Origin: a virus
Direction: 5' to 3' (one strand)
IMG/VR virus record: IMGVR_UViG_3300011113_000649
Coordinates: 41,554-105,553 of that record
Length of the DNA stretch: 64,000 nt
The notes under the pieces were generated by a model. That model had not been told where the DNA came from, ran no database searches, and was given only the letters and a program-made list of their open reading frames with translations. Shown in pieces: positions 41,412 through 50,500 of the stretch. Position 1 is the first letter of the stretch, and each line of letters opens with the position of its first letter. The translations under genes and the position numbers were made by a program.

Positions 41412-41691
41412 TATGAATAGCCTCGTTGAGATCGTTTGCTTCGGCCAATTTAATTGGGCCTTTTGGAATATCTATCCAATATGATCCATATACTCCATAA
41501 AAAACATTCCCAAGGGTACGGTCGTGCATCAAAAATTCTGTAGCGTCATAAAATATATCCAGATGCCATTCACCATTTTCGTCTTGAACCTCTTTTACTG
41601 TATCAACAAGAAGAAAAGAAAAATTAGGGTGCTTAAAATCTGGATCGCTGTAAACAACTCCTCTATAAAATTTATTAGGTAGACTTATCAT
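41362..41691 (-). CDS. hypothetical protein
   Basis: Coupled ORF. Confidence 0.55.
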   Translation of the reverse strand: MISLPNKFYRGVVYSDPDFKHPNFSFLLVDTVKEVQDENGEWHLDIFYDATEFLMHDRTLGNVFYGVYGSYWIDIPKGPIKLAEANDLNEAIHIAQEIMGSKIVDKTHD

Positions 41692-42037
41692 TATGTTTTT
41701 TCCAATCTTCAGTTAAAAATTCTTCTCTGTTGGAGTATAGAGGAACAACTTTTGTTTGATTATCATATTGATTATAGTGGAGTCTTAGATCATAGAGATC
41801 AAGTCTTTCGTTTAACTTACCAAAAGCAACGGGGTTTTCAAATATTTGTTTAATATCTTTGTTTTCTTGACGAGTTTTAGCTAAATCTTTTTCACAACTT
41901 AGCCATCTTTCAGAATTTTTGCTGTCTTCTTTTAATTGTTGCAACTCTTGCTTGGCATTATTAACAACAAAACGATCAGCACCATTTGCCCAAGCAAAAT
42001 CAATAAGGAACTCTATGGGATTTGAGTGTTCATTCAT
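41675..42037 (-). CDS. hypothetical protein
   Basis: Coupled ORF. Confidence 0.55.
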   Translation of the reverse strand: MNEHSNPIEFLIDFAWANGADRFVVNNAKQELQQLKEDSKNSERWLSCEKDLAKTRQENKDIKQIFENPVAFGKLNERLDLYDLRLHYNQYDNQTKVVPLYSNREEFLTEDWKKHNDKST

Positions 42038-42252
42038 GAAGAAAATCCTATTTTAAATTTTTCTGGAGCCATAGTCTCTATAGTAGAAGGAGCAAAGTAT
42101 TCTGTATAATATGACCGACCATTCCACCAGCCACATTTGTAGCTAACATTATTATCGCTAGAAATATTAATTTCGACAATGGTTCCATAAACATCGTCGG
42201 TCAACTTAACCTTACTACCAATCTTGTTTAGTTCAATTACATTTTTGCTCAT
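42034..42252 (-). CDS. small SH3-like beta protein
   Basis: KIGSKVKL..G.IVEI..YKCGWW. Confidence 0.5.
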   Translation of the reverse strand: MSKNVIELNKIGSKVKLTDDVYGTIVEINISSDNNVSYKCGWWNGRSYYTEYFAPSTIETMAPEKFKIGFSS

Positions 42253-42292
42253 TATATTTCCTTAAGGCTTGTTTCAATATCTACTAATTAAA

Positions 42293-42365
42293 TAAGAGCG
42301 GCGGGATTCGAACCCGCACTTGCGACATTTTAAGTGTCGTGTCTCTGCCGTTGGACTACGCTCTC
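42293..42365 (-). tRNA. tRNA-Leu(UAA) with short variable loop, CCA not encoded
   Basis: GAGAGCG/CGCTCTT acceptor, CGACA-CTTAAAA-TGTCG anticodon arm, GCGGG-TTCGAAT-CCCGC T arm, discriminator A. Confidence 0.9.
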
Positions 42366-42369
42366 ATAA

Positions 42370-42446
42370 GTAATCGACTATAATAATCATTGGTCGAGGT
42401 TGATTATGTTTGGGCCTCGCTCATTATAACTATTGTAGCCGACTAC
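42370..42446 (-). ncRNA. long hairpin carrying an anti-SD/anti-AUG sequence
   Basis: ~21-bp G-U-containing outer stem and inner CGAGG/CCTCG stem; contains CATAATCAACCTC, complementary to the RBS and start of 42469..42750. Confidence 0.65.
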
Positions 42447-42468
42447 ACTAATTTTAAACTATCGACTC

Positions 42469-42750
42469 TCAGCCGTTAGTATGGGCCTTGAGGCGACGAA
42501 CAATCTCAGCCATAGCCTCGACGTTATCAACCGTCTTAGTAGGCTTTGCACGTTCCATAGAAGGCAATTCAATGCCCTTCTTAGCCAGAGCGGCTTTTGT
42601 ACGAGCAAATCGTGCCATCGTACTAGCAACCTTCTGACCAGTCTTAATAGCAATCTCAGCATAAGTCTTGGACGAATAAACTGCCTCAAGAAATTGTTCA
42701 TCACCGCAACGAACACGCTTCTGCTTCTCAACATTAGTAACTTCAGCCAT
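42469..42750 (-). CDS. small basic putative DNA-binding (HTH-like) protein
   Basis: GGAGG RBS; EQFLEAVYSSKTYAEIAIKTGQKVASTMARF; own promoter. Confidence 0.65.
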   Translation of the reverse strand: MAEVTNVEKQKRVRCGDEQFLEAVYSSKTYAEIAIKTGQKVASTMARFARTKAALAKKGIELPSMERAKPTKTVDNVEAMAEIVRRLKAHTNG

Positions 42751-42786
42751 AATCAACCTCCAAATCTTAACTAACCAACTATCTAC

Positions 42787-42816
42787 GCGAGTCAGTCACG
42801 CGACTGATTCTCTCGC
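42787..42816 (-). promoter_or_regulatory. 5' leader hairpin
   Basis: GCGAG-AGAA-TCAGTC-GCGT-GACTGA-CTCGC between promoter and RBS. Confidence 0.5.
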
Positions 42817-42828
42817 TTCGACTCTTGT

Positions 42829-42856
42829 ATTCTATCATGCTTTATCGACTTGTCAA
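42829..42856 (-). promoter_or_regulatory. sigma70-like promoter with GTCGATA in spacer
   Basis: TTGACA-AGTCGATAAAGCATGA-TAGAAT. Confidence 0.75.
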
Positions 42857-42967
42857 CAGGCCGACTTGATTTTTTTCTTTGTTACTGAAAATATTTTTCC
42901 AATTTTTTTCCCAAACCTCATAACTTACTGTCTTTGGCCTCGTTTTGTCTCCTTTTCCATTACTCAT
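42842..42967 (-). CDS. small phage protein (41 aa, GKG..RP..NW..IF type)
   Basis: Manual ORF MSNGKGDKTRPKTVSYEVWEKNWKNIFSNK.., ATGA-coupled to the upstream gene. Confidence 0.65.
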   Translation of the reverse strand: MSNGKGDKTRPKTVSYEVWEKNWKNIFSNKEKNQVGLLTSR

Positions 42968-43275
42968 TTGAGTATCTCCGATAAATTTATATCCTCAAAA
43001 GTTTTTGTATTTTTATCTATTGTAATCTGAGTAGCGGTATTATTTGTAATTGATCTCAACTTATTAGAATAATTTACTACTTCTTGTAAGTTTTTAATAC
43101 AACTAGGCATTGTTTGTAATATAAAATCACCGTAAGTTTTATGTGTAGAAATTTCTGCTATAATTTTACATATGATATCATCAATGACTAAGATTATTTT
43201 TGGATCTTCTCTGTATCTATTGACTAGTCTTTGTGCTATCCATCGAATATATTCTAAATCATTTTGATTTAACAT
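42964..43275 (-). CDS. hypothetical protein
   Basis: GGAG RBS. Confidence 0.55.
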   Translation of the reverse strand: MLNQNDLEYIRWIAQRLVNRYREDPKIILVIDDIICKIIAEISTHKTYGDFILQTMPSCIKNLQEVVNYSNKLRSITNNTATQITIDKNTKTFEDINLSEILK

Positions 43276-43485
43276 TCTAGTACGAAACTCCAGTATCTAC
43301 TATCTTCTTTCTTAGTTATTTATAAAGAACGTATCGTTAACCATAAATCCTAGTATAAATCCTATTGACAATAATCCTAAAAACTGATCGTGTGACCAAA
43401 AACAAGAACCTATAAAACTAGCAGTAGCCCCATATAATATTATCAGTTTTTGTTTTTCTTGTTTAGTCATGCCGATCCCTTTAAT

Positions 43486-44106
43486 TTATTTATCAGATTT
43501 TTTAAGATTATCTATAGCCCATAGTGGTTGCAAATTACTATAATGAAAACATTTTTTCTGTTCTTCTATTTTTGTTAGATCAAAACTAGCACAAGGCTTT
43601 ATATGGTCTATATGCCATTTTCCATAGTTATCCCAATTCATACCATCGACAAAAAGATTCTCTAAATATAGTTTTAGATAGTCCCAAGAACAACCAGTTA
43701 AATCATATGATGTGCTATTTTTTGATCCTCGTATTAAAGCCATTCTAATACGATTACTAATAATTGTTCTTAATCTAAATTGAATATTCTTTTTTCTTTT
43801 AAGTCTGCGTTGTTTATTAATTTTATCTCTGTATTTTTCTCTATATTTTTTAGCATTTATTGAAATTTTATCTGGATTATTTTTTCCCCACAGTTTTCTA
43901 TGTTCATTAAGACAATCTCTATTTTTCTCACGATATGCCTTTTGTTGTTGCTTTATTTTCTTTTTATTCTTTTGCCTTCTAATCTGATTGTATACTTTAT
44001 GACAAAGTTTACAGTATGGGGATTTTCCATCTTTTGATGCTTTTTGACTATGGAAATGATCGATTTTTTGTTTTTTATTGCATTTTATACATTGTTTTAT
44101 TTTCAT
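43486..44106 (-). mobile_element. free-standing HNH homing endonuclease
   Basis: CxxC..CxxC N-terminus, basic linker, WHIDHIKPCASF..CFHYSNLQPLWAIDNLKKS. Confidence 0.85.
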
Positions 44107-45615: not shown

Positions 45616-46533
45616 TTAAGTATCTCTTTTTTCTCCATAAAGATATTTAAAGGTCGGAAAACGAAGACTTAGATTTCCGTCTTGGTTCTTCGTTTCTTCA
45701 AAATATTGTACCAAAATTTGCTTACCTAAAATCTTACAAGGATTACAATAAAACTCTTGTCGTTGATCAATAGTAAAACCACTACCAACTCTAACAGTAT
45801 GACCCTTATGCTTGATCATAACGCAACTTAGCATAGTTTCTTCATGCTCCTTGCCATTTAACACATACCTAAACGGCCCCATTTCTGTGTCTACTACTTC
45901 ATATTCATCATCAAAAAACTTCTTCACCTTTAGCAAATCTTTGCTTCGCTTGCCCTTATATGGTTCATCTGCTCGTAGCATAACTCCTTCCCAAAAATTA
46001 TCTGCTGCTTCTTTAACCCATTCTTGAAAATGTTCATCATTATGAATCAACTCTTGCTCCAAGACAGTCAAGCATGGACACTCATTGGGTTGCATAATGG
46101 CACACAGATGAGCGTATCGAATAGAATATGGTCGATTGCTTTGTCCTTTTTTGCTGTAAAATTCATCAATAGTAATTATATCGAAAATCTTAAATGACGG
46201 ATTAGGAATAGTATGATCCTTCTTGCGAAGTTCTTTCATAACTCCTTGAAAATCTTCATTACCATCTTCATCTACTAGACAAAGTTCTCCATCAAGAACT
46301 ACGTTAGAAATACCAAGAGCTTTAATCCCATCCCTAACAATATTAAGAGTATCAAAAATTTTTCCTGTGCGGGAATAGAAGGTAGTATCGCCATTAGTAT
46401 CAACAATACCAACACATCTACAATTGTGTTTGAGTATACCATTAGCAAAAAAATTAGCATTATCTGCAACTTCTAGTTCATATTTATATTTTGATTCAAT
46501 TTTTTCTATTGACTTAATTTTAACAGTTTGCAT
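45616..46533 (-). CDS. lig: DNA ligase C-terminal half fused to split intein IntC
   Basis: 37-aa IntC (..NFFANGILKHN), then C+1 and ligase motifs YSRTGK, LDGEL, FDII, EGVML, LLKVK, VGSGF, SLRFP. Confidence 0.92.
   Translation of the reverse strand: MQTVKIKSIEKIESKYKYELEVADNANFFANGILKHNCRCVGIVDTNGDTTFYSRTGKIFDTLNIVRDGIKALGISNVVLDGELCLVDEDGNEDFQGVMKELRKKDHTIPNPSFKIFDIITIDEFYSKKGQSNRPYSIRYAHLCAIMQPNECPCLTVLEQELIHNDEHFQEWVKEAADNFWEGVMLRADEPYKGKRSKDLLKVKKFFDDEYEVVDTEMGPFRYVLNGKEHEETMLSCVMIKHKGHTVRVGSGFTIDQRQEFYCNPCKILGKQILVQYFEETKNQDGNLSLRFPTFKYLYGEKRDT
46423..46533 (-). mobile_element. split intein C-fragment (IntC)
   Basis: MQTVKIKSIEKI..YELEV..NFFANGILKHN/C (blocks F and G). Confidence 0.9.
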
Positions 46534-47408
46534 AATCTAGTCTCAATTTTGTTAATATTTTTCTGTATGTCCGATGCCCATAATAGGTATACCTTGTAGC
46601 CAAAACTTTTCAAGTGGTTGACGCGAATTTTATCTTTTTTCCAAACATCTTTGGCACATAATTCTCCTGCCCATGTTATGATTATATCATTTGGTTTATA
46701 TTTTCTAGGATTGGCATGAAATGTATCTCCATAAATTTCGATAATAATCTTTTTTTGTTCTATAATTATATCTGGTCGAGGATTATATATTTTTTTTAAG
46801 GCTTTGTTGTATCTATTAAACTGTATACCATCAATATTTTCACTTATATAGATTATATTGTATTTATCTAATATATTTTCTACTCTTTGGTGTGGTATAG
46901 ATTTTTTACCATTATTTCTTCTATAGCTTGGCAAATCAACCGGATTTTCCACTCCATATTTTTTAATAAGTGTTTGTTTAGTTTTTTCTTTAACGCTTTC
47001 TAATTGAAAAACATTAGTAATTCCTTTACCATATTTTTGTTCTATGGTTTTCTGGGTTTGCTTAGATTGAAAATTATTCTTATAACCATAATTTCTTAAA
47101 TTAGTTTCTATTCTTTTTTGTTTAGTATTCGGATTATTTGCTGCCTCTTTGAGGGTCTGTGTTTTAATGCCTAGCTCTTTGCATCTAGTAATTATATGCT
47201 TAGTTTTAATTTTAGCATTGTTTATCTCTAATTCTAGCTGATAGCAAGACTTGCCTAACTTAATTATATTATCTTTTAGGTATTTTTTAGTTAAAATTTT
47301 ATTTCTATAATTAGTTATATATTGAACATAATTTTTACATTTCGCTTGATGCCCATATAATTGTTGCTTAGTCTTTAATCCGGCCTTATTGCAATATTGA
47401 CATTTCAT
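46506..47408 (-). mobile_element. free-standing Vsr/DUF559-like homing endonuclease between the intein halves
   Basis: N-terminal C2HC, repeated T..(K/N)YG units, PDIII..IIEIYGDTFH..D..R..GYKV..WASD. Confidence 0.85.
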
Positions 47409-47466
47409 TTAAAAATTTCCCTTCTGGTATTTAATACACAGATATCGAGAAAGTTGGATGGAAATT

Positions 47467-47784
47467 TCAATCAAAAAGAATTTCTTCACTTCCGTCCAGT
47501 TCATCTACGCGACGATAACACTTGAGTTTAGGAATATATACTGTGTCATTACCAGTAATATTAAGAGTAATGCCATTTTCTAAAGTAATTTTATACCATT
47601 GTGTAGGCTTGGTTTCAGAAATATCATGAGCATTACTCATATGATTAATAATTGGTTTATACTCAATTTGATTAGTTTTATGATTAAAAGACTTAATATT
47701 CCCATTAATCTTATGCTCCACAACATAGCCAATAGGCAATACAACACCGGTATCAAACTCTACCAGAGTGTCATAATCTACACA
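47467..47784 (-). mobile_element. split intein N-fragment (IntN, 105 aa)
   Basis: CVDYDTLV (block A), KSFN..IEYKPI, YKITLENG..LNITGND (block B), RVDEL. Confidence 0.9.
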
Positions 47785-48285
47785 GCCATCAATCTTTCTG
47801 CTAACATACCAACCGTCCTCCCAGTCTACAAGTTTAGGTTCATATTTATCAGCAAGAGCAACACTGAATTCTGGAATATGATCTTTGATTGCTTTGTTAA
47901 TAATCTTATCGCCAGCACGGGTTTTCAAATCCTTGTCGATAATACAATGGATCAAATCCTCATGGTGCGGATAAGTGTCAACAAAAGAATTAACCGCACC
48001 AATAGCGTCGTGACCAGTAATCTTGCGACTCTTTAGATCATCAAGAAGATCAAAAATATTATCATATCTTATTCCACGAAGATGACTTTTCTTTTTCAAA
48101 TTATCGCTTGTGACATTATATTGCCACATTGGATGATAAGTATACAGAAAAATATTCTTAGCAAAAGTTGCTGATGCTGTTTGGTGACAGCAATAGTCTA
48201 CAATAATACCTTCTTTATCCTTAGTGCTGCTAGTAGCCCTAAGATCACGAACCATTCCCCAAACATAATCAAAATCGTGAGTCAT
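47467..48285 (-). CDS. lig: DNA ligase N-terminal half fused to split intein IntN
   Basis: AGGAGA RBS, start 48285; IIDKDLK, VALA, motif I SRKIDG followed by intein C1. Confidence 0.92.
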   Translation of the reverse strand: MTHDFDYVWGMVRDLRATSSTKDKEGIIVDYCCHQTASATFAKNIFLYTYHPMWQYNVTSDNLKKKSHLRGIRYDNIFDLLDDLKSRKITGHDAIGAVNSFVDTYPHHEDLIHCIIDKDLKTRAGDKIINKAIKDHIPEFSVALADKYEPKLVDWEDGWYVSRKIDGCVDYDTLVEFDTGVVLPIGYVVEHKINGNIKSFNHKTNQIEYKPIINHMSNAHDISETKPTQWYKITLENGITLNITGNDTVYIPKLKCYRRVDELDGSEEILFD

Positions 48286-49828: not shown

Positions 49829-50184
49829 TGGAGGCGAGGGAAATCGAATCCCTGTCCTATCATATTTCAAATTATATATTCTACAAGTTTATTTTATTCA
49901 TAAATTAAATAGGATTACAGAACAAACAAGATTAATTCCTATCTTATCGACTTCTCTTAACCTGCAACCCGTCGAACATTGTAGGTGCAGAGGGATTTAA
50001 CGACAGACTTTTGATCCCTACCCTCATTCGGTATCGCAGTCTGTTACTGCCCTTTTTTGTCAGGCAGCAAGTGCTAACTGAGTTTCGCCAGTTAAAGCGT
50101 TTAATCGACTTTTAAAGTGGCCTGTCGATCAACCACTACTTGCTAATATAATCTTCTTTATGTAGTCGAAACCTTTACGCCCCC
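49829..50184 (-). ncRNA. ssrA: tmRNA, tag (A)GETQLALAA, CCA not encoded
   Basis: 5' GGGGGCGTAAAGGTTTCGAC and 3' GGACAGGGATTCGATTTCCCTCGCCTCCA with a G3-U pair; tag ORF 50089..50060 after TTAACT. Confidence 0.92.
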
Positions 50185-50396: not shown

Positions 50397-50418
50397 AATA
50401 TGAAAACCTCTGCGTTAA

Positions 50419-50492
50419 TAGGGTGTGTAGGAGTCGAACCTACCTTTTGAATACCTTATAAGAGTATTTGCAACAACCGGCTGCAACACCCC
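50419..50492 (-). tRNA. tRNA-Ile(UAU) with atypical D arm
   Basis: GGGGTGT/ACACCCT acceptor, ATACT-CTTATAA-GGTAT anticodon arm, GTAGG-TTCGACT-CCTAC T arm. Confidence 0.8.
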
Positions 50493-50500
50493 ATTTTTAT

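Follow-up and report, generated by a model that had tools for sequence, protein, structure and literature searches.

The window, by which we mean the whole stretch of 64,000 nucleotides that was analyzed, is part of an IMG/VR record that spans 105 kb and comes from a large phage encoding rIIA, a UvsX-like recombinase, a DnaB-like helicase, a ribonucleotide reductase, a tmRNA and tRNAs. The minus strand of the window contains a unit composed of a strong sigma70-type promoter, a leader stem-loop, an extended ribosome binding site (RBS), an ORF for a 93-aa protein, a long hairpin in the 3'-UTR, and a tRNA-Leu(UAA) gene (Table 1). A preliminary description of the locus had placed each of these elements on the same strand and at the same positions, and it had noted that the hairpin harbors an exact 13-nt complement of the SD motif and the start codon of its own gene. 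Both observations were reproduced, as the reverse complement of GAGGTTGATTATG, the SD-plus-ATG stretch of the gene, is identical to CATAATCAACCTC in the hairpin. The described division of this complement was also recovered, with 9 nt located in the loop and 4 nt in the inner stem.

Table 1. Coordinates of the features of the cassette, numbered along the window
Feature	Position	Strand	Remarks
Promoter, sigma70-type: TTGACA, 16-nt spacer, (TG)TAGAAT	42829..42856	-	11/12 consensus matches
GTCGATA motif inside the promoter spacer	within 42829..42856	-	conserved GYCGATA
5'-terminal leader stem-loop	42787..42816	-	outer stem GCGAG/CTCGC, inner stem CAGTC/GACTG, loop GCGT
Extended RBS TTGGAGGTTGATTATG	42748..42763	-	SD, spacer and start codon
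13-mer GAGGTTGATTATG	42760-42748	-	SD plus ATG; start codon at 42750
ORF, 93 aa, HTH-like	42469..42750	-	
Long 3'-UTR hairpin, 77 nt	42370..42446	-	fold and covariation
Inner stem of the hairpin apex, CGAGG / CCTCG	42419-42415 / 42399-42395	-	
Loop of the hairpin apex, 15 nt	42414-42400	-	
Anti-RBS 13-mer CATAATCAACCTC	42396..42408	-	exact reverse complement of GAGGTTGATTATG; CATAATCAA in the loop, CCTC in the apical stem, facing GAGG (42418-42415)
Conserved core of the anti-RBS, TCAACCTC	42403-42396	-	
tRNA-Leu(UAA)	42292..42366	-	3-4 nt after the hairpin

The unit forms a GC island, with about 45% GC in the region 42292-42860 compared with about 30% in the flanks. An upstream alignment revealed that the promoter and the GYCGATA motif in its spacer were kept in 39 unique haplotypes, and that both stems of the leader stem-loop exhibited compensatory changes across relatives; this stem-loop is probably a stabilizer of the mRNA 5'-end. 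In nearly all homologous cassettes (relatives L002-L081), G(C/T)CGATA directly follows TTGACAA. AGTCGAT is present in three copies within the 500-nt unit (42373, 42461, 42844) and in two copies in the tmRNA, and the AGTCGAT / G(C/T)CGATA motif may be a candidate regulator site. A consensus scan was also used to look for an antisense antitoxin RNA, and the promoter-like sites on the plus strand within or near the cassette were weak (9/12 matches). The same type of scan detected no convincing tRNA promoter inside the hairpin. A small ORF starting at the plus-strand copy of the 13-mer was considered and rejected, because it comprises only 7 codons.

The phage has no close cultured relative; its recombinase was at most 28% identical to those of isolate phages. 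A homologue of the 93-aa protein was not found in isolate phages, and at the DNA level the tRNA alone was matched there. Several features of the surroundings were recorded. The tmRNA (tag GETQLALAA) and a tRNA-Ile(UAU) are located a few kb upstream of the cassette on the minus strand (49829-50184 and 50418-50493). Upstream of the promoter, at a distance of about 630 nt, there is an HNH/endonuclease VII-like ORF (43486-44106, minus strand; phrog_1035, E 1e-20). The DNA ligase gene (45616-48285, minus strand) appears to be fractured into an N-terminal part that ends in KIDG and is followed by a Hint-like segment, a free-standing homing endonuclease ORF (46506-47408), and a C-terminal part with ligase homology (45616-46533), while in the relatives G001-G003 the ligase is a single intact ORF of 420-453 aa.

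The 93-aa protein has 666 database relatives, some of them at 35-50% identity, which form only 26 clusters at the 50% level; the best 120 of the 666 were 82-96% identical and nearly all 93 aa long. The genes that flank the cassette in these relatives are syntenic, have freely variable RBS spacers, and encode products that are only 28-72% identical. The strong conservation of the cassette compared with its neighbors reflects either an unusually strong constraint or a recent spread of the cassette. No Pfam family passed the curated cut-offs for the protein, all hits falling below them. The AlphaFold model contains four helices and represents a soluble protein (pLDDT 81), the core of which weakly resembles HTH or winged-helix DNA-binding domains (Foldseek E at least 0.2, VIA Z 4-5.5), and a hydrophobic segment was not found in the sequence. 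On the basis of the model and these weak, generic matches, the gene product would be a soluble helical HTH-like domain. With respect to the protein, the analogy to hok and aapA that had been drawn in the preliminary description fails. The type I toxin family was excluded as the home of the gene because the product is not a small hydrophobic toxin; this reasoning leaves hok and aapA available as mechanistic analogies.

Homologous loci were collected to analyze the conservation of the non-coding elements. The 118 fetched loci represent about 114 distinct contigs of uncultured large phages from freshwater samples, among which there are several complete genomes (138-244 kb). The order of promoter, leader stem-loop, RBS, ORF and hairpin was the same in all fetched loci. 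The adjacency of the tRNA gene, which had been reported for the window (gap of 3-4 nt), was confirmed and extends to most relatives, in which tRNA-Leu(UAA) follows 4-7 nt downstream of the hairpin. The relatives have either a short form of this tRNA, with 73-77 nt, or a long one, with 83-86 nt; ARAGORN made no tRNA call in about one third of the scanned loci, several of which still have a tRNA-like sequence right after the hairpin. The best explanation for the region is that it is one self-contained, conserved, early-type expression cassette that belongs to a lineage of large, AT-rich, uncultured phages.

The hairpin had been presented as an RNA structure, and its conservation as such was borne out by the alignment. 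Folded alone, the hairpin of the window has a free energy of -28.6 kcal/mol (z -5.8 versus shuffles) and is built of a lower stem of about 17 bp, internal loops, a 5-bp apical stem and a 15-nt loop. In an alignment of 47 hairpins, compensatory double changes were found at 11 of the 17 pairs of the lower stem, and several positions are mostly G-U. A covariance model of the hairpin scored 79-95 bits on the gene strand compared with 28-35 bits on the other strand (79 versus 28 in the window). These results identify the hairpin as a genuine RNA structure that is specific to the transcribed strand. It is single-copy in each of the four genomes searched, none of which contained a second one. In a search of the region 41500-43500 against Rfam 15 (E up to 1) only the tRNA was matched; the hairpin is a previously undescribed structured RNA element that is absent from Rfam. 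The terminator scan did not call the hairpin of the window, the tail of which is CUUAU. Many relatives have a UUUU(U)A tail after the hairpin, and three loci (L033, L046 and L129) have long U-runs and no adjacent tRNA.

The 13-mer and its complement constitute the only exact inverted repeat of at least 13 nt in the 64-kb window for a distance of 30-600 nt between the arms. In block-shuffled windows about 2.1 such 13-mer matches were expected, so the repeat alone is not significant window-wide, and a scan of a whole window would often find one. When the 46-nt 5'-region of the gene was compared with its own 115-nt 3'-region, however, none of 3000 shuffles reached 13 nt (locus-level p <0.001). 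It is this locus-restricted comparison, together with the conservation in relatives, that lifts the match above chance.

For the analysis of this conservation, 72 unique 5'/3' haplotypes were used, including 52 of Type I, to which the window belongs, and 17 of Type II. The Type I apex keeps the arrangement GAGG-CACAC...UCAACCUC, and UCAACCUC is present in 51 of the 52 haplotypes, masked by a near-invariant GAGG. The exact complement of the RBS has a length of 8-13 nt in 51 of the 52 (13 nt in 14 haplotypes, 12 nt in 7, 11 nt in 8, 9 nt in 3 and 8 nt in 19) and is 6 nt long in the remaining one. Position-wise pairing was counted on 39 distinct Type I sequence pairs, with G-U pairs allowed. The pairs p0-p7, which link GAGGUUGA of the RBS with UCAACCUC of the apex, were present in 38-39 of the 39 cases. 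Pairing at p8-p11 (UUAU), which takes in the first two nucleotides of the AUG, was found in 79-87% of the cases, compared with just 38% for the G of this codon. At the opposite end, three additional pairs that are set off by a single bulged G were present in 69-87%. The anti-RBS of the preliminary description is thus near-invariant in Type I as far as the anti-SD and RBS octamers are concerned, whereas the full 13-mer and a complement that spans the entire AUG are restricted to certain lineages. No covariation was seen in the apical stem, which is identical in 46 of the 47 hairpins, although the lower stem covaries freely; this points to a constraint on the sequence of the apex and not just on its structure. 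Another sequence in the 5'-half of the apex, GAGGCACAC, is also conserved and has no partner in the RBS.

The RBS shows a corresponding pattern. In Type I, the sequence upstream of the ATG was unchanged in 72 of 78 loci, compared with an average identity of 72% at third positions of the ORF. With 79% identity at third positions, the Type II clade has a lower diversity, and yet three variants of the RBS spacer occur in it. These numbers, which reflect few independent events, fit a link between the RBS spacer and the 3'-element. Within Type I, the subclade with an 8-nt complement (L034 type) carries AAAUCAUU right after the CCUC, and this sequence is the complement of AAUGAUUU, which closely precedes the SD; this additional complement comprises 8-9 nt (locus-level p about 0.01). 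In L069 the RBS is changed and the complement has moved to CCUCCAAUC. Apart from the Type I hairpins, L109 has a different hairpin that again contains AACCUCCAA in its apex. Compensatory changes between the RBS and the 3'-loop, which had been named earlier as a signature of a fold-back, were sought in the homologous loci, and cognate-specific co-evolution was not found: duplex energies gave cognate pairs little advantage over non-cognate pairs (-22.4 versus -21.2 kcal/mol), and RBS variants with a 3-nt insertion had no compensation in the loop. Because the core never varies, no compensatory change proves the pairing between RBS and apex.

The lower stem of Type II, a sister clade, is homologous to that of Type I, and its hairpin has a remodelled apex that contains no anti-SD; the complement to the RBS is at most 7 nt, which is the chance level. 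The hairpins of two distant homologues, L094 (48% identity) and L124 (66%), are short, resemble terminators and are also devoid of an anti-SD. Scans with P0122, P0129, P0130 and P0135 for further distant relatives located no loci, while L094 and the P0121-like set could be retrieved. In this part of the family, the gene and a hairpin were kept with a complement of at most 7 nt, a situation that the preliminary description had named as a refutation of the fold-back. Most loci of the Type II clade (L077, L095-L128) have a 9-12 nt complement, TCTAACCAATC, to the 5'-leader at positions -30 to -19, which is marginal (p about 0.04) and missing in L114/L115, where the RBS complement is likewise at the chance level. 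The ascending apical strand resembles the 5'-leader in both hairpin types.

Folding of the whole transcript gave a mixed picture. For the window, the minimum free energy structure keeps the local hairpin, whereas in the centroid structure the SD-AUG region is paired with the 3'-loop, and the pairing probability of the SD with the 3'-UTR is 0.81. In relatives, the whole-transcript partition function yielded probabilities of about 0, except for L057, L068 and partly L012; their local hairpins are stronger (-33 to -43 kcal/mol) and the local fold wins. The fold-back that had been proposed for the transcript was thus visible in the centroid of the window, while the minimum free energy structure and most relatives favor the local hairpin. 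Nested folding is an incomplete test because a contact of the loop with the RBS while the stem is closed is a pseudoknot, which the model excludes. An accessibility-corrected estimate of the interaction was used in its place. The resulting energies were -7 to -12 kcal/mol for clades with an 11-13 nt complement, 0 to -7 kcal/mol for the L034 type, a modest -5.3 kcal/mol for the window, and +2 kcal/mol for Type II. It has been reported that anti-RBS 8-mers lose most of their effect when they are located between two pairing segments (PMC12697547). Judged by the energies, a contact between the loop and the RBS is plausible, though not compelling.

From the structures, the complementarity and their conservation, we infer that the mRNA probably folds back and damps its own translation. 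The explanation that we tentatively prefer is an icaR-like fold-back between the 5'- and 3'-UTRs that tunes translation of a strongly expressed early gene and resides on a hairpin that also forms the 3'-end of the mRNA. This end would be generated after RNase P has cut the tRNA or, alternatively, by termination at loci with a U-run behind the hairpin. The apex of the main hairpin type would display the anti-RBS with the loop part, AUAAUCAA, free and the CCUC part masked by GAGG. Once the full transcript has been made, the loop could nucleate on the RBS spacer and the start codon, and the helix could then spread into the SD by displacing the apical stem of 4-5 bp. The result would be a helix of 12-13 bp (8 + 8 bp in one subclade) that competes with the 30S subunit, such that translation, and perhaps also mRNA stability, would be damped as in icaR. 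The own RBS is the only one in the 105-kb record that resembles the target GAGGTTGA, and among 441 candidate start regions it takes third place when these are ordered by the energy of their duplex with the apex. As the sister clade lacks the anti-SD, the anti-RBS would be an accessory tuner that is not essential to the cassette. In a more elaborate version, which we regard as rather improbable, the fold-back would be a translation timer: ribosomes would load during transcription, the toehold in the loop of the freed hairpin would then invade the RBS and turn the message off, and the burst of an early regulator would in this way be tied to the maturation of tRNA-Leu(UAA) via RNase P. The apex may in addition be reused as a fast-evolving trans seed, as is hinted at by a match to the ligase gene that is discussed below.

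Among the explanations that dispense with a fold-back, the one with the greatest weight is that the hairpin is a 3'-end element only, i.e. a protective stem, a leaky terminator or a site for RNase III or RNase P between the mRNA and the tRNA, that the anti-SD shielded by GAGG is inert in cis, and that the apex is conserved otherwise, e.g. as a protein-binding site. We consider this possible, at a clearly lower probability than the fold-back. It would agree with the greater stability of the hairpins of the relatives, in which the local fold dominates, with the U-rich tracts after the hairpin in many loci, including the three without an adjacent tRNA, and with Type II and the distant homologues, which work without an anti-SD. 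The conservation of GAGGCACAC without a partner in the RBS points in the same direction, and there is published evidence that anti-RBS 8-mers are shielded when they lie within pairing segments (PMC12697547). However, the hairpin of the window has no usable U-tract, and a mere 3'-end element leaves three observations unexplained: the UCAA of the loop and the next AU-rich stretch match the RBS spacer, this spacer is frozen just where an anti-SD exists, and the 8-nt subclade carries an additional upstream complement. Pure coincidence, an AT-rich loop beside a CCUC stem that happens to match a strong SD with an AT-rich spacer and was passively inherited, is compatible with the roughly two 13-nt inverted repeats within 600 nt that are expected per shuffled window, and also with the facts that any anti-SD resembles the 16S 3'-tail and that strong SDs are common. 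We assign it very little probability: the core is near-invariant over 52 haplotypes in which neutral sites are about 28% diverged, the match is significant at the level of the locus, and the second and third solutions in the L034 type and in L109 argue against chance.

The hairpin might also be released as a 3'-UTR-derived sRNA with a 3'-end made by RNase P, the loop of which acts in trans on phage or host mRNAs and has the match to the own RBS as one target among several. The whole 15-nt loop (42400-42414) exactly complements TTGATTATGTTTGGG (48272-48258, minus strand), which corresponds to codons 5-10 of the gene for the N-terminal ligase fragment (ATG at 48285), whereas only about 1e-4 matches of a 15-nt loop are expected in the window by our own estimate. 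This ligase site also takes first place among the 441 regions in duplex energy, the loop is in part conserved like the seed of an sRNA, and 3'-UTR-derived sRNAs such as SdhX are an established class (PMC6393394). Nevertheless, the ligase match is lost in three complete relatives, in which the ligase codons are nearly the same but the loops differ and pair poorly. The ligase as a conserved trans target was rejected for this reason, and the match is recorded as unexplained. In addition, no sign of a 5'-processing site was found, and the record offers no other RBS that resembles the target. An action in trans is accordingly, in our judgment, even a little less probable than the timer. A further idea is that the two 13-mers act as DNA, either as an inverted operator pair for the HTH-like protein or as repeats of an invertible or mobile segment. 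The repeats do flank the ORF, the gene product looks like a DNA-binding HTH protein, and the cassette is a GC island that is far better conserved than its neighbors. But the hairpin relies on G-U pairs, and its score on the transcribed strand exceeds that on the other strand by about 50 bits, which indicates a constraint at the level of RNA, and the Type II loci have no second copy of the 13-mer. An invertible segment or mobile element was rejected because orientation and synteny are the same in all of the approximately 114 contigs, an inverted form not being seen among them. Like coincidence, a role as DNA thus appears highly improbable.

A new structured RNA element and a highly conserved early cassette emerge from the analysis, and the candidate fold-back is kept in dozens of genomes from an abundant lineage of uncultured phages. 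To our knowledge, no such arrangement is known in a DNA phage, and the literature search found no example of such a fold-back there. The idea of a fold-back is directly testable with reporters, because nature provides the controls: a sister clade without an anti-SD, variants that differ in the extent of pairing, and one lineage that arrived at a solution independently. If the pairing turned out to be inert, the case would document that a conserved anti-SD is tolerated when it is masked inside a hairpin.

Several known systems resemble the cassette in part. In the type I toxin mRNAs of hok/sok and aapA/IsoA, pairing between the 5'- and 3'-ends of the full-length mRNA keeps the RBS closed until the 3'-end is processed. 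The closure of an RBS by 5'-3' pairing of a full-length mRNA is the common element. In contrast, the phage gene encodes a 93-aa soluble HTH-like domain and not a small membrane toxin, an antisense RNA gene is not evident at the locus, and the partner of the RBS is the apex of a hairpin, whereas hok and aapA pair the extreme ends of the mRNA. The sib element of phage lambda, which mediates retroregulation, and the RNase III hairpins of the early mRNAs of phage T7 act via RNase III and the access of exonucleases. There, too, a long imperfect hairpin located 3' of a phage gene sets the fate and the 3'-end of the mRNA, but complementarity to an RBS is not part of the mechanism, unlike the element described here.

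In the hbs mRNA of B. subtilis, an interaction between the 5'- and 3'-UTRs stabilizes the mRNA without occlusion of the SD (PMC5737220); the likeness is confined to a contact between the mRNA ends, which affects stability in hbs. With SdhX-type sRNAs (PMC6393394), the hairpin shares the location at a 3'-end and a conserved single-stranded, seed-like part, but neither a processed species nor a conserved trans target was found for the phage hairpin. Recently, it was shown that pyrimidine-rich anti-SD 8-mers located hundreds of nucleotides away, including in 3'-UTRs, pair with the RBS, reduce the amount of mRNA and prevent initiation (Gill et al. 2025, PMC12697547). The conserved core in the phage is such an 8-mer, about 340 nt away from the RBS; these 8-mers are generally depleted (PMC12697547), whereas that of the phage is conserved and lies in the context of a shielding hairpin. 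The closest parallel is the icaR mRNA of Staphylococcus aureus, in which an anti-SD in the 3'-UTR pairs with the own SD region, blocks initiation and creates a substrate for RNase III (PMC3868564). The icaR element and that of the phage are not related in sequence. The anti-SD of the phage differs in that it resides in the apex of a long, covarying hairpin, is half masked by GAGG, also covers the spacer and a portion of the AUG, and has a tRNA next to it. What both have in common is the mRNA of a small protein, an HTH-type regulator in icaR and an HTH-like protein in the phage, with an anti-SD in its 3'-UTR, which in the window is a 13-nt complement of the own SD region located several hundred nucleotides upstream.
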